A stretch of 45,450 nucleotides of DNA. Origin: Rhodospirillales bacterium (GTDB taxonomy: Bacteria > Pseudomonadota > Alphaproteobacteria > Rhodospirillales > JASLLV01). The notes under the pieces were generated by a model. That model was given only the letters and a program-made list of their open reading frames with translations, did not search any database and was not told the DNA's origin. The position numbers were made by a program, and so were the translations under genes. Each line of letters begins with the position of its first letter. The first letter of the stretch is position 1. Below are positions 2,686 to 9,436 of this stretch, one piece after another. The DNA lies in assembly GCA_030746935.1 (NCBI GenBank), contig JASLLV010000001.1:1-45450 (forward strand), given 5' to 3'.

Positions 2686-3423
2686 TCAGGCGAAGCGCGC
2701 CCGCGCGTCCCGGGCGAGCGCCGAAAGCGCATCGCGGCAGGCGGCGGCGGCGCTTACCGGAATCGGGAAAGGCAGGCGCGCGTAATTGGGCCCCCGCCGC
2801 AAATCGATCCCTTCTGGATCCACCCCGATCACCCGCCAGCCGTCGCCCTTGCGCCCGAGAAGGGCACGTGCATAGAGCCCGACGAGGTCGGCGTGGTCTT
2901 CGTTCATGTGTTCGATCACACCCGCCTCGCTGGTCGCCATCGCCGCCGGTCCGGGGCCGCCGAGGACGAGATCGCGGCCTTCGATCCACGCGGCCTTCGC
3001 GAACCCGCCCACGTAGCGGGCGCGGCTCACGGTCATGCGGTAAAAGTTGAAGTCCGCGAAGCCGGCGTACGATCGCGCTTCCGGGTGGCGCGCGAGGAAC
3101 CGCCGCGCGTGGCGCTCGTCGCGGGTGGGCTTCACCCGCCCCATCAGGCTCACGCGGGCGCCGGTCTGCGGGTTCTTGAGACCGTTCGCCGCCCCCACCA
3201 ACAATGACGCGCACCGGTTCGCGTGGATGTTACGGGTGTGGTCGGCAAGCTCGGAGAAGAGAAAGATCGGGCTCGCGTCCATGTCCCAGCCAAGCGTGAC
3301 GAGCGAAGCGAACGGAAAGCCAGCACCCTTGCGTCCACTCGCCTCGGTGGCGAGCGCGCCGGCGCGCGCGCCTCGCATCAGCGCCCGCACCGAAGCCGCG
3401 TCGGGCGTGAACGCGCGTCTCAC
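2686..3423 (-). CDS. HugZ/HutZ-like pyridoxamine-5'-phosphate-oxidase-fold protein with a C-terminal DUF2470-like domain (putative haem-binding or haem-degrading)
   Basis: 245 aa. The N-terminal split-barrel-like part reads GALATEASGRKGAGFPFASLVTLGWD...IFLFSELADHTRNI, and the C-terminal part reads VIEHMNEDHADLVGLYARALLG...WRVIGVDPEGIDL. The GTG start at 3421-3423 overlaps the TGA of the upstream CBS gene (GTGA). Confidence 0.6.
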   Translation of the reverse strand: MRRAFTPDAASVRALMRGARAGALATEASGRKGAGFPFASLVTLGWDMDASPIFLFSELADHTRNIHANRCASLLVGAANGLKNPQTGARVSLMGRVKPTRDERHARRFLARHPEARSYAGFADFNFYRMTVSRARYVGGFAKAAWIEGRDLVLGGPGPAAMATSEAGVIEHMNEDHADLVGLYARALLGRKGDGWRVIGVDPEGIDLRRGPNYARLPFPIPVSAAAACRDALSALARDARARFA

Positions 3424-3833
3424 TCCTGGGGCTCGTCGCCGATGTGACGCAACACCATGTCGCGTAGCGTCACGATGCCCACCGGGCGGCGCTCGTTGTC
3501 CAGCACCAGGGCGCGCGTGAGCTGGAACCGCGTCAGCAGGCGGACGGCATATTTGATATCCATCTCGGCGGGCAAGGTCAGGACCGGCTTGGTCATGACC
3601 TCGTAGACGTTGACCCGGTCCGACGAGCGGTCCATTCCGATCACCTCGCGGGCAATATCGGTGACCACCAACAGACCGAACTCGTCCGCCTCGTCGCGGC
3701 GCTCGACCACGAGCGAGCTGACGCGGGCCTCGCGCATGATCGCGACCGCCTCGCGGACGGTGGCGGTGCGGCCGATGGTGCGAACCTCGGGCGTCATGAC
3801 CTCGCGGACATGAATGGGGCCATCGGCGCTCAT
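3420..3833 (-). CDS. Stand-alone CBS-pair protein
   Basis: 137 aa starting at the ATG at 3831-3833 (MSADGPIHVREVMTPEVRTIGRTATVREAVAIMREARVSSLVV...VYEVMTKPVLTLPAEMDIKYAVRLLTRFQLTRALVLD). It contains two CBS motifs. The longer 273-aa ORF in the track is an Arg-rich extension that overlaps the PII-like gene. There is an ATGA overlap with the PII-like gene at 3830-3833. Confidence 0.8.
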   Translation of the reverse strand: MSADGPIHVREVMTPEVRTIGRTATVREAVAIMREARVSSLVVERRDEADEFGLLVVTDIAREVIGMDRSSDRVNVYEVMTKPVLTLPAEMDIKYAVRLLTRFQLTRALVLDNERRPVGIVTLRDMVLRHIGDEPQE

Positions 3834-4180
3834 AGCTGGGCCTCGATTTCTTCGAGCAACGTCGGCGCCTGGGTCTTCAGGCCCTCGGCGTCCTCGATGG
3901 CGAGTTGAAAGGCGATGCCGCTTCCCGGCTCTTCGTCGAACTGTCCCGCCTTGGCAATGGTCTCGAGGATCTCGCGCGCGCGCTGTTGGGCGACGAGGAA
4001 CAAAAGGACGTCCCTTTGCCCCGTCAGGTCCAGCCCAAAAAAGGTCTTGTCCGGCTTCAATCCCTCGCCGCGGCCGCTCGTAATCACGGTCGCCCCGGTG
4101 GCGCCGGCGTCTCGGGCCGCGTCGATGACGGCGTCGGTCTTTTCGTCGGACACGAGCGCCACGATCAGCTTTAGATTCAT
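3830..4180 (-). CDS. PII-like signal-transduction protein (not GlnB/GlnK type)
   Basis: 116 aa: MNLKLIVALVSDEKTDAVIDAARDAGATGATVITSGRGEGLKPDKTFFGLDLTGQRDVLLFLV. Its length and beta-alpha-beta pattern fit the PII fold, with a Gly-rich loop at the T-loop position. There is an ATGA overlap with the upstream DUF1538 gene at 4177-4180. Confidence 0.7.
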   Translation of the reverse strand: MNLKLIVALVSDEKTDAVIDAARDAGATGATVITSGRGEGLKPDKTFFGLDLTGQRDVLLFLVAQQRAREILETIAKAGQFDEEPGSGIAFQLAIEDAEGLKTQAPTLLEEIEAQL

Positions 4181-4962
4181 TGGATCTCCTCCGCGTCATG
4201 CGGTCGGCGCAGGCTGCGGAACACCTCCGACAGCATGGCATACCCCAACACCGAAATAATGGGAAACACGCTTGCGAACGCGATCAGGCCGAACCCGTCG
4301 ATCAACGGGCTGCGGCCCGGGATCGCGGTGGCGAGCCCGAGCCCGAGTGCAGCGACGACGGGCACGGTCACGGTCGAGGTGGTGACGCCCCCGGAATCGT
4401 ACGCCAGGGCGACGATCGTGCGAGGCGCGAAGATGGTCTGGACGATGACGATCGCGTAGCCAGCCATGATGTAGTACGCGAGTGGGGTTCCGGTCACGAT
4501 CCGAAAAGTCCCCAGCGCCACACCGACCGCGACCCCGACCGCGACCGCGATCCGCAAGCCCCAGCCGTGGACGGCGCCACCCGAGACCCCTTCGGCCTTC
4601 AGTCCGACGGCGATCAACGACGGCTCGGCAAGCGTGGTCGCGAACCCGATCGCGGCAGCGAAGACGTAGACCCAGACGAAGCTCCACCACTCGGCGGGAC
4701 CGCCCGCGGGCGCGCCCACCAGATCGCGAGCCGTCAGTTGCGTCGCCATGGCTTCGCCCAACGGGAACAACGCCTTCTCGAGCCCCATCAGGAACAGTAC
4801 CAGCCCTGCCAGCACGCAAACGCAGCCCACCACGGTGCGGCGCAGGTGCGGCGGCGGGCGGCGAATGATCAGGACCTGGAAGGCGACCAGCAGGGCGACG
4901 ATCGGCGCGACGTCGAGAAGGGTCGCGACGCTTGTCTCGAGGGCGTGTCCGAGAGTGGCCAC
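4177..4962 (-). CDS. DUF1538-family polytopic membrane protein (paralogue B)
   Basis: 261 aa and hydrophobic throughout. It has the motifs GLEKALFPLGEA and [46 protein letters not shown]. The GTG start at 4960-4962 lies 9 nt after the stop of paralogue A, with the SD GAGGGG in between. Confidence 0.7.
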   Translation of the reverse strand: MATLGHALETSVATLLDVAPIVALLVAFQVLIIRRPPPHLRRTVVGCVCVLAGLVLFLMGLEKALFPLGEAMATQLTARDLVGAPAGGPAEWWSFVWVYVFAAAIGFATTLAEPSLIAVGLKAEGVSGGAVHGWGLRIAVAVGVAVGVALGTFRIVTGTPLAYYIMAGYAIVIVQTIFAPRTIVALAYDSGGVTTSTVTVPVVAALGLGLATAIPGRSPLIDGFGLIAFASVFPIISVLGYAMLSEVFRSLRRPHDAEEIQ

Positions 4963-4971
4963 CGGCGCCCC

Positions 4972-5727
4972 TCAGACCACCATGCCGAAGACGAGGACGA
5001 ATATCATCGGCGCCAGGCTCGCGAACGCGATCAGTCCAAAGCCGTCGATCATCGGACTTCGCCCGCGGATGGCGCTGGCGAGGCCGACGCCAAGCGCCGT
5101 CACCAGGGGGACCGTAATGGTCGAGGTGGTGACGCCGCCGGAATCGTAGGCGATCCCGACGATTTCGGGCGGCGCAAACGCGGTCAGGGCGATGACGAGT
5201 AGGTATCCGCCGACGATAAGGTAGTGGATCGGCCAGCCCTTGATGATTCGCACCACGCCGACCACCAGGGCGACGCCGACCGCGACCGCGACCGTGAGCC
5301 TGAGCGCCAGCGCATAAGTCCCCTTGGCCTCGCCCGTTCCGGCGATGACACCGGCCTCGCTGGCGGCGGCGGCCTTTGCGGCGACCGCGTTCAGGACCGG
5401 CTCGGCGACCGTAGTGGCGAAGCCGAGCCCGAACGCGAACGTCAGCAACACTGCCAAGCTTCCCTTGCGGGCGAACGCGTTCGCGAGCGCCTCGCCCAAG
5501 GGAAACAATCCCATCTCGAGGCCGTATACGAACAGCGCCAGGCCCAGGACGACGAAGACGACCCCGAGAAGAATCCCGTCCAGGTCCGGCAGCGGCTGGC
5601 GAAACAGCAACGCCTGGAACAAAACCACGACGACGACGATCGGCGTCAGGTCCCGGACCGCGCCTGCCAGCCGGCGAAAAAGGCCTCGAGCGATGGATTC
5701 CATGTGAAACGCAGTCTTTGCGGGCAT
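4972..5727 (-). CDS. DUF1538-family polytopic membrane protein (paralogue A)
   Basis: 251 aa. It has the motifs [12 protein letters not shown] and [46 protein letters not shown], which are clearly paralogous to the next gene. An alternative start is the ATG at 5703 (MESIARG...). Neither start has a good SD. Confidence 0.7.
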
Positions 5728-5778
5728 CCGGAGATTGGAGAGGCCCGCCGACGCCCGTGCCGGGCCGATCGGGGCGGC

Positions 5779-6459
5779 TCAGTCCTGTCCCAGTCTCTTG
5801 TACACGTGCCCCCCGAGACCGCCAAGGATCAACCAGAAAAGCGCGGTCGCGACGAGCGAGGCGGCCGCGAACTCGGCCGCGAGCGCGGCCGGCACCGCCG
5901 ACGCTTCGACTTGGACGTGGGGCGCGCCGACGAGATGCGGCGCGGCCACGATCATGGCGCCCAGAAGCCGAAACCCGATCCGGCGCGCAAGAAACAACAA
6001 CCCAAGCCCGGCCGCCGTGCAAACCGCGGTCGCCAGCCACCAGATTTGCCGCTCGAGCACCGGCGCCGATTCGATTCCCGGCAGCTCCGGCGGCAGACCC
6101 AACGCCGGCGCCGCCGAAAACGCGGCGAAACCGCCCAGGCCCCAAAGCAGCCCGCGCCCGAGATCGACGTCGCGCCCGCTAAGCGCGATCGCGCCGAGAA
6201 GCGCCAGTGCGAAGCCGACCCCGAGGGCGATGTCGGCGATCAGCGTTACCATCGCGCGCCGATCGAGCGGGCTTCCGAACGCCTGGCCCTCGGCGCTGGA
6301 ATCGGCAGCGTCATGGGCATGCGCCGCGGCCGCTTGCGCGTGCTCGTAAGTCTCCGCCTCGAGGATCAGAGGAACCACCTTCAGCGTATGGGCGCCCCAG
6401 GTGAAAAACCCGGCGGCCGCGCCCGCGATCAGCGCCGCGCCGACGATACGCCCGAACAC
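5779..6459 (-). CDS. cbtA: Predicted cobalt transporter subunit CbtA
   Basis: 226 aa membrane protein with a His-rich periplasmic segment (YEHAQAAAAHAHDAAD). It lies directly downstream of cbtB and of a cobalamin riboswitch. Confidence 0.75.
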   Translation of the reverse strand: MFGRIVGAALIAGAAAGFFTWGAHTLKVVPLILEAETYEHAQAAAAHAHDAADSSAEGQAFGSPLDRRAMVTLIADIALGVGFALALLGAIALSGRDVDLGRGLLWGLGGFAAFSAAPALGLPPELPGIESAPVLERQIWWLATAVCTAAGLGLLFLARRIGFRLLGAMIVAAPHLVGAPHVQVEASAVPAALAAEFAAASLVATALFWLILGGLGGHVYKRLGQD

Positions 6460-6469
6460 CTAGCACCCC

Positions 6470-6667
6470 CTAGTGACAGGGAAGGGCGAAGGCGTGGCGG
6501 GCGTCGTGGGCCGCGTCGTGAAGGGTCGCGGGCGCCGCGAATCCGGCGACGAAAACGATGAACGTCCCGAGGACGATCGCGAGAATCGGCGGAAATGCGG
6601 CGTATGAGCTGCGCCGCAAGCGATCGGCGGCGGCGGTTGAGCGCTCGCGGCTGGCGGAAAGAATCAT
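6470..6667 (-). CDS. cbtB: Predicted cobalt transporter subunit CbtB
   Basis: Small one-TM protein ending in the His-rich tail HDAAHDARHAFALPCH, which is typical of CbtB. I prefer the ATG at 6665-6667, because GGAGG sits 7 nt upstream of it. The track's start at 6682 lies inside that SD. Confidence 0.75.
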   Translation of the reverse strand: MILSASRERSTAAADRLRRSSYAAFPPILAIVLGTFIVFVAGFAAPATLHDAAHDARHAFALPCH

Positions 6668-6766
6668 GATCTCGGCCTCCATTCAGCAAGACAACGTTCC
6701 TTGTCACCGCGAACGGAAGACCCGCCCCTTGGGAATGCCCCGTCCCGAGGGATCACGATGACCCGT

Positions 6767-6951
6767 GGTGGCCGGTCTCCTGGCTCGCGGCTCGGTGCCG
6801 GCCCGCCGCCTTCCCAACGCCCCGATGGGGCCTCAGTGGCCGCATGACGCACCGGCTCGCCGCCTACAGTTGCGGGGTCAGCCTCGGCTTGAGGGCAAGT
6901 TTCCGCGCCCCTGACCGCGTTCCCGTTTCATCTCCTTCGCGAAGAGCCACC
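6767..6951 (-). promoter_or_regulatory. Cobalamin (B12) riboswitch aptamer; the expression platform continues to about 6683
   Basis: Read on the minus strand: B12 box AGCCAGGAGACCGGCC (6785-6770); GCCACUG (6840-6834); CCCGCAACUGUA; GGGAAGGC; AACGGGAAC. The closing P1 helix pairs GGUGGC (6951-6946) with GCCACC (6772-6767). In the platform, GGUCUUCC can pair with the cbtB SD region GGAGGCC. Confidence 0.85.
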
Positions 6952-6957
6952 GATTTG

Positions 6958-6987
6958 ACTATAATTCGGCCACAATTGCCCCGTCAA
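6958..6987 (-). promoter_or_regulatory. Sigma70-like promoter for the riboswitch/cbtB transcript
   Basis: On the minus strand: TTGACG (6987-6982), an 18-nt spacer, then TATAGT (6963-6958). The -10 element ends about 7 nt before the riboswitch P1 helix. Confidence 0.5.
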
Positions 6988-7076
6988 ACCATCGCGCAAG
7001 CTGGCGGCCCTGACGCGCGGCGGGCGTTGGGGCAGCGGCGCATCCGGGGCGTGAACCGAGGGGCAGGGTTCGCATC

Positions 7077-7778
7077 ATGACGCGTACGATCGCTCTCGTG
7101 GACGACGACCGCAATATCCTCGCCTCCGTTTCCATGGCGCTGCAGGCCGAGGGGTTCGAGGTCTACACCTACTCGGGCGGCGAAGAGGCCCTTGACGGCT
7201 TGGACCGGCGGCCCGCCGACCTCGCCATCCTCGACATCAAGATGCCGCGCATGGACGGGATGGAGCTTTTCAACCGGCTTCGGCGCAAAAGTGCTACGCC
7301 CGTGATCTTCCTAACCTCCAAGGACGACGAGATCGACGAGATGTTGGGGCTCCGCATGGGGGCGGACGACTACATCACCAAGCCCTTTTCCCAGCGTTTG
7401 CTGATTGAGCGGGTCCGCGCCGTTTTGCGCCGCCACGAGCGCGCGCGCCCCGAGGCCGGTGGCGATGGTGACGGCGAGGTCGTCCGCCGCGGCGAGCTGG
7501 TGCTCGATTCCTCGCGCCATCTCTGCACTTGGCGGAATGAGGCCGTCAACCTCACCGTTACCGAGTTCCTGTTGGTCAAGTCGCTCGCCAACCGGCCCGG
7601 CCACGTCAAGAACCGCGACCAGCTGATCGACGCGGCATACGGCGAACAGATCTATGTGGACGACCGCACCATCGACAGCCACATCAAGCGCCTGCGCAAG
7701 AAGTTTCGCGACGTCGACCCCGCGTTTGCGCAGATCGAGACGCTCTACGGCATCGGCTACCGCTATCGCGATGGCTGA
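7077..7778 (+). CDS. chvI: OmpR-family response regulator ChvI
   Basis: 233 aa. It has [25 protein letters not shown]...[57 protein letters not shown]. It is followed by the chvG-like kinase and hprK, as in other alphaproteobacteria. Confidence 0.85.
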
Positions 7779-7807: not shown

Positions 7808-9436
7808 ATGAACGCCAAGATGCGTCGTCGCCGGCGGGGCCGCGCGGTCTCGCCGATCACGCTGCGCATTCTCGCCGTCAACGTCCTTGCGCTCGCGATC
7901 CTGCTCGCCGGCATCCTCTATCTCGACGAGTACCGGCGCAGCTTGATCGAAAGCGAGCTCGCGGCGCTCGGCGTCCAGGCCGAATTGTTCGCCGCCGCAT
8001 TGGGTGAAGGCGCGATCGACCTGGCGCCGGCGGCGACCGAAGGCGAAGGTACCGAGCGGTTGGCACCCGAGGCCGCGCGCCAGATTCTCAGGCGGATGGC
8101 GGAAACGTCGGGCACTCGGGCCCGGCTTTTCGCCGGTGATGGCGGTTTGCTGGTCGACAGTCGCGAGCTCGCGGCGCCCACGGGCAGCGTCGAGATCGAG
8201 GAGCTTCCGCCGCCCCGGGCAGACACCGGGTTCGCGCACGCCCTTTCCGAGCTGTTCGACCGGGCCGTCAACTGGATTCCCGGCACCGGCGACATGCCAC
8301 CCTATCGGGAAAACGCGCCTCAGGCCGCGAGCGACTACGACGAAGTGGTCCAGGCGCTGGGCGGCGAGGCCGCCGGCGCCGCGCGCAGCGACGCCCGGGC
8401 GGGCATGATCATCAGTGCCTCGGTTCCGGTCCAGCGATACAAACGGGTGCTGGGCGCGTTGATGCTGTCGAAGGATTCGCGCGACATCGAGGCGGCGCTC
8501 TTAGACGTGCGCGTCGGCATTGTCGAGGTGTTTGCGGTCGTCCTCGGCGTGACGGTCCTACTATCGCTCTATCTCGCCGGAACCATCGCGCGGCCGATTC
8601 GGCGCCTCGCTGCCGCCGCCGAAAGGGTCCGCGCCCAGCCCAAACACCGCCATGCGATCCCCGATTTCGCGCACCGCGACGACGAAATCGGCGAGCTGGC
8701 CGACGCACTTCGCGACATGACCGAGGCGCTCTGGCAGCGCATGGACGCGATCGAGCGGTTCGCCGCCGACGTCGCCCACGAGATCAAGAACCCGCTCACC
8801 TCGCTCCGCAGCGCGGTCGAGACCGCGGCGCGCGTGACGGACGCGGACCAGCGCCGGCGCCTGTTCGCCATCATTCTCGACGACGTGCAGCGACTCGACC
8901 GGCTGATCACCGACATCTCGCACGCATCCCGGCTGGACGCCGAGCTGTCGCGCGCCGAGACCGGACCCGTCGACGTCGCCGGAATGCTGGCGACCCTGGT
9001 CGCGGTCCACGGCACCACCATCTGCGAAGGCGCGCCCCGATTGCGCCTCGCGTCCGAGAGCTGCGGAGGCTTCGTTGTCAACGGGATCGAGGGCCGCCTA
9101 GTCCAGGTATTTCGCAACCTGATCGCCAACGCCGACTCGTTCAGCCCGCCCGGTGGCCTCATCACGCTGGACGCGCGCAAGGAATACGGCGCCGTCACCG
9201 TCCGCGTCGAGGACGAGGGCCCAGGCATCCCCGACGGCAAGGAAGACGCGATCTTCGAGCGCTTCTATTCCGAGCGCCCATCGGGCGAGAAGTTCGGTAT
9301 CCACTCCGGTCTCGGGCTTAGCATCTCGAAGCAAATCGTCGCGTCCCACGGCGGCACGCTGACGGCGGAGAACATCCGCGACGATTCGGGGCACGTCCGG
9401 GGCGCCCGGTTCACGGTTCGCCTGCCGACCGATTAG
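7808..9436 (+). CDS. chvG: Sensor histidine kinase ChvG/ExoS/BvrS type
   Basis: 542 aa with two TM segments flanking a periplasmic domain. It has a HAMP domain, an intact H-box FAADVAHEIKNPLTSL, an N box (FRNLIANADSF) and G boxes (DEGPGI, GLGLSI). Confidence 0.8.
   Translation: MNAKMRRRRRGRAVSPITLRILAVNVLALAILLAGILYLDEYRRSLIESELAALGVQAELFAAALGEGAIDLAPAATEGEGTERLAPEAARQILRRMAETSGTRARLFAGDGGLLVDSRELAAPTGSVEIEELPPPRADTGFAHALSELFDRAVNWIPGTGDMPPYRENAPQAASDYDEVVQALGGEAAGAARSDARAGMIISASVPVQRYKRVLGALMLSKDSRDIEAALLDVRVGIVEVFAVVLGVTVLLSLYLAGTIARPIRRLAAAAERVRAQPKHRHAIPDFAHRDDEIGELADALRDMTEALWQRMDAIERFAADVAHEIKNPLTSLRSAVETAARVTDADQRRRLFAIILDDVQRLDRLITDISHASRLDAELSRAETGPVDVAGMLATLVAVHGTTICEGAPRLRLASESCGGFVVNGIEGRLVQVFRNLIANADSFSPPGGLITLDARKEYGAVTVRVEDEGPGIPDGKEDAIFERFYSERPSGEKFGIHSGLGLSISKQIVASHGGTLTAENIRDDSGHVRGARFTVRLPTD

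Follow-up and report, generated by a model that had tools for sequence, protein, structure and literature searches.

A cobalamin riboswitch-cbtBA unit next to a DUF1538 module in an uncultured Rhodospirillales bacterium: a possible stack of independent cassettes behind one conserved promoter

The window analyzed here, a 45,450-nucleotide (nt) stretch of DNA, is a contig from the metagenome-assembled genome (MAG) of an uncultured Rhodospirillales bacterium (JASLLV010000001.1, positions 1 to 45,450; assembly GCA_030746935.1). It contains a row of seven genes that begins with a cobalamin riboswitch and the predicted cobalt transporter genes cbtB and cbtA and continues into two DUF1538 genes and their neighbors, with every feature of this row on the minus strand. 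A sigma-70-like promoter, here called promoter P (6958 to 6987; -35 hexamer TTGACG at 6987-6982, an 18-nt spacer, and -10 hexamer TATAGT at 6963-6958), leads into an adenosylcobalamin-type aptamer (6753 to 6966) and an expression platform (6668 to 6752). These are followed by cbtB (6470 to 6667; 65 amino acids [aa]), cbtA (5779 to 6459; 226 aa, with a GTG start 8 nt past the cbtB stop), a 75-nt spacer (5704 to 5778), and then genes for two membrane proteins, DUF1538-A (4972 to 5703; 243 to 244 aa) and DUF1538-B (4177 to 4962; 261 aa), a PII-like protein (3830 to 4180; 116 aa), a CBS-pair protein (3420 to 3833; 137 aa), and a HugZ-like protein (2686 to 3423; 245 aa). The downstream boundary of the unit is pckA (705 to 2531), encoding a GTP-type phosphoenolpyruvate carboxykinase (PEPCK; PF00821 and PF17297). 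On the other side of promoter P, a chvI-like response regulator gene identified by profile match (7077 to 7778) and chvG (7808 to 9436) lie on the plus strand, in a chvI-chvG-hprK series that runs the opposite way from 7077. The parts of this architecture claimed in a preliminary description of the window, namely, a promoter leading straight into a complete aptamer with a B12 box, cbtB with its Shine-Dalgarno sequence (SD) and then cbtA, a short unpunctuated spacer, and a translationally coupled series of downstream genes, were all confirmed. The promoter matches the consensus at 10 of 12 positions and is the sole minus-strand sigma-70-like match between 2400 and 7200, where 0.3 matches would be expected on both strands together. 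The coupling of the downstream genes consists of a 9-nt gap between DUF1538-A and DUF1538-B followed by three 4-nt overlaps: ATGA for DUF1538-B/PII, ATGA for PII/CBS, and GTGA for CBS/HugZ-like, the start codon of the HugZ-like gene being GTG.

The aptamer matches Rfam family RF00174 at 6966-6753 over the whole model (positions 1 to 189 of 189), with a score of 92.3 bits against a gathering score of 31.5 (E value, 1e-21). Its core includes GCCACTG (6840-6834) and the B12 box AGCCAGGAGACCGGCC (6785-6770), and its P1 stem begins at about 6951, the predicted transcription start. A terminator scan of the region found no U-tract or intrinsic terminator between the aptamer and cbtB. The first in-frame ATG of cbtB (6682) overlaps the SD GGAGG (6680-6676); the gene most likely starts at the ATG at 6667, 8 nt 3' of the SD, and the resulting 65 aa agree with the gene calls of its relatives. 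When the expression platform is folded alone, GGUCUUCCGUU is predicted to pair with GAAUGGAGGCC, burying the cbtB SD, and UCGUGAUC with GAUCAUGA, burying the cbtB AUG. In a longer predicted fold the B12-box strand GCCGCGAGCCAGGAGACCGGCC pairs with GGGCGGGUCUUCCGUUCGCGGU instead, and the SD is freed. The anti-SD CUUCC (6719-6715) has two alternative partners, the SD and, as part of GGGCGGGUCUUCCGUUCGCGGU, the B12-box strand. In a related locus, L007 (loci from the survey described below carry L numbers), whose DUF1538-A is 70% identical to that of the window, the equivalent pairing UCCGUU:AACGGAGG is kept with different bases. The predicted folds and this comparison suggest that the platform can adopt two alternative structures. 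We therefore model the element as a translational OFF switch of classic design that would gate cbtB directly and cbtA through its close coupling with cbtB. Because the SD and AUG would be sequestered and no terminator was found, any effect on the distal genes must run via Rho-dependent polarity or mRNA decay; the riboswitch would not by itself switch off their transcription. Translational riboswitches commonly lower mRNA levels through Rho in Escherichia coli (Bastet et al. 2017, PMC5499598). The thiM riboswitch and others studied there resemble the window element in having an SD/AUG-sequestering platform without an intrinsic terminator (PMC5499598), and the same logic would spread the B12 signal to the downstream genes of the window. 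Unlike the E. coli systems, the window case is known from the sequence of an uncultured Rhodospirillales MAG alone.

The assignment of cbtB and cbtA is supported by Pfam profiles (CbtB, PF09489, 62 bits against a cut-off of 27, E value 6e-17; CbtA, PF09490, 141 bits against 30.7, E value 6e-41). With the NCBIfam models, CbtA scores above the cut-off (TIGR02458, 201.5 bits against 182.9) and CbtB slightly below it (TIGR02459, 58.8 bits against 64.4); both models themselves carry the label "proposed," and cobalt transport is a prediction here. From comparative genomics, cbtAB genes are classic B12-element-regulated predicted cobalt importers. The window unit resembles other RF00174-cbtAB systems in its full-length aptamer with a B12 box directly 5' of cbtB-cbtA and in its sigma-70-like promoter. 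It differs from them in two ways: five genes not known to belong to B12 regulons stand behind cbtA with no punctuation in between, and the promoter is shared by orthology with loci that have no riboswitch. The riboswitch-cbtBA unit is real and ordinary; its neighbor is lineage specific.

The preliminary description had treated DUF1538 as uncharacterized, which needs correction. UmpAB of Halomonas zhaodongensis is a DUF1538 pair that forms a heterodimer and carries out Na+(Li+,K+)/H+ antiport, as was demonstrated by producing the Halomonas proteins in E. coli KNabc (PMC5484666). The window likewise encodes two adjacent paralogous DUF1538 membrane proteins (PF07556; E values, 4e-65 and 8e-66), one of the A type and one of the B type. 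Gene A fits best to NCBIfam UmpA (NF041627), with 336 bits against a cut-off of 490, and gene B to UmpB (NF041628), with 303 bits against 500; at scores below both cut-offs, the pair would be relatives of the UmpAB family and not equivalogs. A further difference is that the text of the UmpAB paper contains neither "P-II" nor "CBS" (PMC5484666), whereas in the window and in nearly all related loci a PII-like protein (PF00543; E value, 3e-10; 40.9 bits against a cut-off of 25) and a protein with two CBS domains (PF00571; E value, 6e-21) follow. The AlphaFold (AF2) model of DUF1538-A is all-helical, with a predicted local distance difference test (pLDDT) score of 88.7. No sequence match was found in the PDB, and no significant structural match with Foldseek (best E value, 0.76; template modeling [TM] scores below 0.3), so that the DUF1538 family appears, on this model, to have no solved structural relative; weak Foldseek matches to ZIP transporters were not counted as evidence. 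The last protein of the row combines a PNPOx-type split barrel with DUF2470 (PF13883, PF01243, and PF10615; CREG/PNPOx), as do the HugZ and HutZ heme oxygenases, and the PDB entries closest to it in sequence are those of PA4388 (2e-29), the heme-binding MSMEG_6519 (2e-21), and Arabidopsis AT3G03890/HOZ (4e-17). It differs from HugZ and HutZ in falling far below both equivalog cut-offs (HugZ TIGR04109, 27 bits against 240; HutZ, 23.5 against 225), within a wider PNPOx-like plus DUF2470 group, and its heme role is only putative.

At the junction between cbtA and DUF1538-A, the cbtA stop codon lies at 5781-5779, and ATG codons at 5727 and 5703 give gaps of 51 and 75 nt; the start is almost certainly at 5703, since most homologs are 244 aa long, covering 97% of the 251-aa open reading frame. 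The GC hairpin reported for the spacer (GCCCG-GCA-CGGGC, 5765-5753) is present and lacks a U-tract, and it is not more stable than shuffled sequence (z scores of +0.6 and +0.9). A conserved terminator formed by a hairpin after the cbtA stop was considered and rejected, the z scores ranging from -1.3 to +1.6 in six lineages. The minus-strand scan detected no -35/-10 pair and no terminator-like site in the spacer, which also has no SD, and it detected no terminator-like site at any junction from promoter P to the HugZ-like gene. Inspection by eye found no -10-like hexamer at the ATG at 5703 that could serve a leaderless mRNA. Upstream of DUF1538-A, no element is common to loci with different upstream neighbors, and the 3' part of the spacer is conserved within the window clade only. 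Given a 75-nt junction without a terminator or recognizable promoter, transcription from promoter P would probably enter the module.

Related loci were collected to place this arrangement in context (175 in all: 3 close homologs, 80 from GTDB genomes, 80 from metagenomes, 7 intermediate relatives, and 5 from the CbtA side). The survey extended to DUF1538-A homologs that share 59% identity or more with the query, and synteny was determined by tblastn. DUF1538-A, DUF1538-B, PII, and CBS are kept together in nearly every locus, with PII following DUF1538-B in nearly all of them, across the Alpha- and Gammaproteobacteria, Nitrospirota, Chloroflexota, and Desulfobacterota. About 160 loci have this module without cbtBA, and cbtA or cbtB lies upstream in just 4 of the 129 loci that have at least 1.5 kb upstream of DUF1538-A. 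By its distribution, the group of four genes would be an autonomous and very widespread module. Riboswitches were sought with Rfam at the gathering threshold in 55 related loci and with our own covariance model in about 173; Rfam was used as well because our model, built from 4 related aptamers with an effective sequence number of 0.78, is narrow. The Rfam scan found a cobalamin match in five loci (L001, L002, L003, L007, and L175), each orthologous to that of the window and immediately 5' of cbtB. Our model scored the L175 aptamer, on which it had not been trained, at 160 bits and found no further aptamers, although it may miss distant cobalamin riboswitches. A recurrence of B12 riboswitches upstream of DUF1538 genes was not borne out, as an aptamer stands directly upstream of DUF1538 in none of the loci scanned by either method (55 with Rfam and about 173 with our model). 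The full-text literature searches that were made likewise found nothing that connects DUF1538 or UmpAB with B12 riboswitches or cbtAB.

Within Rhodospirillales whose module carries the HugZ-like gene, the slot between the divergent chvI and pckA holds several combinations of cassettes. In the window, L002, and L003, it contains the riboswitch with cbtBA, the module, and the HugZ-like gene before pckA, and L001 has the same layout in rearranged form. In L007 and L175, an opposite-strand gene for a PCuAC copper chaperone separates the riboswitch-cbtBA unit from the module; judging from this gene order, cbtBA and the module cannot be one designed operon there. Seven loci (L015, L107, L115, L118, L122, L145, and L158) have the module, the HugZ-like gene, and pckA without cbtBA, two contigs have cbtBA, the HugZ-like gene, and pckA without DUF1538, and L171 to L174 have cbtBA followed by pckA only. 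In relatives at 72 to 74% identity, still other neighbors precede the module, the HugZ-like gene, and pckA. Two short contigs, L084 and L167, have cbtA directly before DUF1538-A, at distances of about 84 and 134 nt. Direct adjacency of cbtA and DUF1538 is therefore found in diverged lineages (L002/L003, L084, and L167), with remnants in L001; it is broken by the opposite-strand gene in L007 and L175 and absent from 11 related loci with a HugZ-type module. Neighbor-joining trees of DUF1538-A and of the four concatenated module proteins were star-like, and a single clade of cbtBA-linked loci was neither shown nor refuted.

L001 has three copies of the junction, which comprises the 3' end of cbtA, the spacer, and ~50 nt from the start of DUF1538-A (4988-5152, 5563-5729, and 6843-7046). 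Sequence identity is 100% for two of the copies and 75% for the third, and cbtA is full length with a frameshift. The contig has low coverage (12.9x in its name), so part of this arrangement could be an assembly artifact. L001 was rejected as proof of an ancestral separation of cbtBA and the module, the triplicated junction being a secondary rearrangement.

The feature that unites these layouts is promoter P, which is found in all 17 chvI-adjacent loci (the window included), always directed away from chvI. Its general form is TTGAC(G/C), a spacer containing an invariant TTGTGGC-NN-AA, and then TTATAG(T); in L001 and L007 the hexamers and their spacing are the same as in the window. A block extending over the spacer and the -10 hexamer, TTGTGGC-NN-AATTATAG, is invariant across 11 aligned loci and conserved in all 17 chvI-adjacent loci (among its positions are window 6959-6975, minus strand; L001 3852-3869, L007 4063-4080, L015 5926-5943, L107 4849-4866, L115 4816-4833, L118 4642-4659, L171 4686-4702, and L175 4479-4495). 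The block resembles an operator because its conservation far exceeds what a -35/-10 pair requires. Its reverse complement, GCCACAAT, is only loosely like the published ChvI/BvrR boxes, and identity with a known box was not established, since there is no clear match to TTGC-N3-GCAA, GCC-N8-GCC, or the BvrR boxes. Between riboswitch-bearing and riboswitch-free loci the homology ends directly after the -10 hexamer, and the P1 stem of the aptamer starts ~6 nt farther on. In L015, promoter P lies ~30 nt upstream of the start codon of DUF1538-A, which has its own AAGGA SD there, and it is thus evidently the promoter of the module in that locus. Taken together, the alignments suggest that promoter P is the resident promoter of the chvI-pckA slot, driving whichever cassette stands first, and that the module in cbtBA-free relatives depends on it, whichever direction evolution took. 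As promoter P serves the module in those relatives, read-through is favored in the window as well.

We propose that independent cassettes are stacked in this region downstream of a single conserved promoter, a reading to which we give a probability of roughly 0.55. In this scheme, promoter P, divergent from chvI, would drive the first cassette of the slot, which in the window is the cobalamin riboswitch with cbtB-cbtA. When B12 is bound, the aptamer would hold the B12-box strand, leaving CUUCC free to pair with the GGAGG SD and burying the cbtB AUG; cbtA would follow cbtB by close coupling. The second cassette would be the autonomous UmpA/UmpB-like DUF1538 pair with its PII-like and CBS proteins, by analogy most likely a nucleotide-regulated cation/proton transporter, with the putative heme-binding HugZ-like protein attached to it as in its closest relatives. 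Transcription from promoter P would continue over the 75-nt junction into the module, and B12 could lower the module mRNA in an indirect way only, by Rho-dependent polarity or because the untranslated cbtBA segment decays. Read-through into the five downstream genes is likely, since the short spacer bears no punctuation, the adjacency has been retained, and the promoter is orthologous; their response to B12, which could come about via polarity only, falls somewhat short of an even chance. The preliminary description had suggested a seven-gene B12-responsive unit. This stands insofar as no punctuation precedes DUF1538, but the switch, being translational, would not stop distal transcription itself. 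The pairing of riboswitch-cbtBA with the module would be a lineage-specific juxtaposition and not a sign that the module has a role in cobalt or corrinoid metabolism.

A number of points weigh against this proposal. We infer read-through from an absence of signals, and the sigma-70 and terminator scans are crude for an alphaproteobacterium of 67% GC content. The scan missed an element upstream of pckA, so an unrecognized promoter ahead of DUF1538-A is possible. The argument from promoter orthology is only suggestive, as it would equally make pckA depend on promoter P. The opposite-strand gene in L007 and L175 means that the module must be transcribed apart from cbtBA there, from a promoter of its own. 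In the window clade, DUF1538-A has no SD from which its translation would start. Finally, an UmpAB-like function is an extrapolation from one heterologous-expression study, at profile scores below the cut-offs.

Alternatively, the row could consist of two transcription units. Promoter P and the riboswitch would serve cbtBA only, and most transcription from P would end before 5703, by Rho or at an atypical terminator; the module would use its own unrecognized promoter, situated either in the spacer or within the 3' end of cbtA. The autonomy of the module in ~160 loci, the variation of its upstream neighbors even among close relatives, the opposite-strand gene in L007 and L175, and the intact module of L001 behind a rearranged junction and a frameshifted cbtA would all fit such an arrangement, as would the 75-nt untranslated and partly C-rich spacer, and the case of pckA shows that the consensus scan can overlook genuine promoters. 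However, no promoter-like or terminator-like site was found, the post-stop hairpins are at shuffle level in six lineages, and no shared element precedes DUF1538-A among loci with different upstream neighbors. Loci that lack cbtBA use promoter P for the module, only a short spacer parts cbtA from DUF1538-A, and several diverged lineages have kept the two genes adjacent. On balance we consider two units somewhat unlikely.

It is also conceivable that the row is a functional seven-gene B12 regulon, in which the module and the HugZ-like gene owe their place behind the riboswitch to a function in cobalt, corrinoid, or tetrapyrrole homeostasis. The unpunctuated layout would be expected of such a regulon; the window clade, L084, and L167 all have cbtA next to DUF1538, the HugZ-like protein falls in a heme-binding family, and cbtBA directly precedes the HugZ-like gene in two contigs without DUF1538. 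Against this, an aptamer was found directly upstream of DUF1538 in no surveyed locus, UmpAB, the sole characterized DUF1538 pair, exchanges Na+(Li+,K+) for H+ (PMC5484666), the full-text searches made gave no link from DUF1538 or UmpAB to B12, and in L171 to L174 the aptamer has decayed while cbtBA stays. We therefore regard a regulon of this kind as improbable. The role in cobalt, corrinoid, or tetrapyrrole homeostasis that the preliminary description had raised for the DUF1538 module and the HugZ-like protein found no comparative support: the slot holds cbtBA without the module in some loci and the module without cbtBA in others, and the aptamer lies only 5' of cbtB. Participation of either in such homeostasis is accordingly judged very unlikely. 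The loss of the aptamer in L171 to L174, which keep only its first 70 to 90 nt behind the same promoter and give no Rfam match, could suggest in turn that the window riboswitch is a decaying relic that regulates nothing and that the whole row is constitutive from promoter P. Yet the window aptamer is full length at 92 bits with GCCACTG and the B12 box intact, and a comparison of the window clade with L007 shows compensating changes that preserve the platform sequestering the SD, which makes a relic extremely improbable.

Returning to the proposal of stacked cassettes, a riboswitch-cbtBA cassette may have become inserted into the space that separated a conserved promoter from the operon under its control. 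This promoter, chvI-adjacent and with its operator-like block, may be controlled by ChvI. The UmpAB-like module and the putative heme-binding protein would then be repressed by B12 via Rho polarity, and cobalt uptake would have come under an envelope- or acid-stress promoter. We advance this regulatory capture tentatively and think it rather less probable than the stacking itself. Other stages of the process might, with similar doubt, be represented by sister lineages: a slot with the module alone, a slot with cbtBA alone, decay of the aptamer, and renewed separation by a gene on the opposite strand. If both read-through and polarity are true, the window would be a natural example of a riboswitch gaining targets by insertion behind an existing promoter, with intermediate and decayed states preserved in sister lineages. 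The most interesting side of the locus is this evolutionary one, i.e., the stacking of cassettes at a fixed promoter, the possible regulatory capture, and the decayed aptamer of L171 to L174. The locus also cautions against inferring function from proximity to a riboswitch, as the comparative data part adjacency from shared function. The DUF1538×2-PII-CBS module, whose fold appears to have no solved relative, is a better target of study than the B12 link.

The decayed riboswitches lie at 4703-4800 in L171 and 4705-4800 in L173, where the retained stretch of aptamer (…CTCTCCGCTAAGGTGGAT…ACGGAAAC…) follows the promoter, a deletion has removed the B12 box with all that lies 3' of it, and cbtB-cbtA are intact; with our covariance model the decayed aptamer scores 11 to 14 bits. 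In L171, a miniature inverted-repeat transposable element (MITE)-like insertion of ~290 nt with long terminal inverted repeats (TCTATCTGGCTAATATTGATACACTCTGA … TCAGAGTGTGTCAATATTAGCCAGATAG) is present between cbtA and pckA at ~5740-6010; it is not in L173. A small hydrophobic open reading frame (…DPMLIGLGVLSLIVAAFFSFQSF, then a stop codon) lies between the promoter and DUF1538-A at ~4830-4925 in L118 and at the equivalent position in L122, L145, and L158; in these four riboswitch-free loci it showed no similarity to CbtB by tblastn. Upstream of DUF1538-A, the window clade has no SD (5704-5726), L015 has AAGGA, L107 has GAAGGA, and L167 has an SD too.

At the other end of the slot, the 154-nt spacer between the HugZ-like gene and pckA (2532-2685) contains the element GTTT(T/C)C(C/G)-TTGCAT (window 2650-2645, minus strand), which is common to L001 to L003, L165/L166, and L168, was missed by the consensus scan, and is probably the -35 region of the pckA promoter. 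The gene at this end always encodes a PEPCK, but one of two unrelated types. The GTP type (PF00821) is found in the window clade and many relatives, and the ATP type (PF01293) in L167 (3610-5217), L171 (6032-7642), L173 (5750-7360), L171 to L174 generally, and the P0141 contigs, a distribution that points to non-orthologous replacement at a fixed position. Two loci have other RNA elements immediately 3' of the DUF1538-PII-CBS module, a c-di-GMP-I-GGC riboswitch in L013 (Nitrospirales; 8633-8709, 72 bits) and a cspA thermoregulator in L026 (Methylococcales; 8256-8638, 87 bits), which presumably belong to the next genes.

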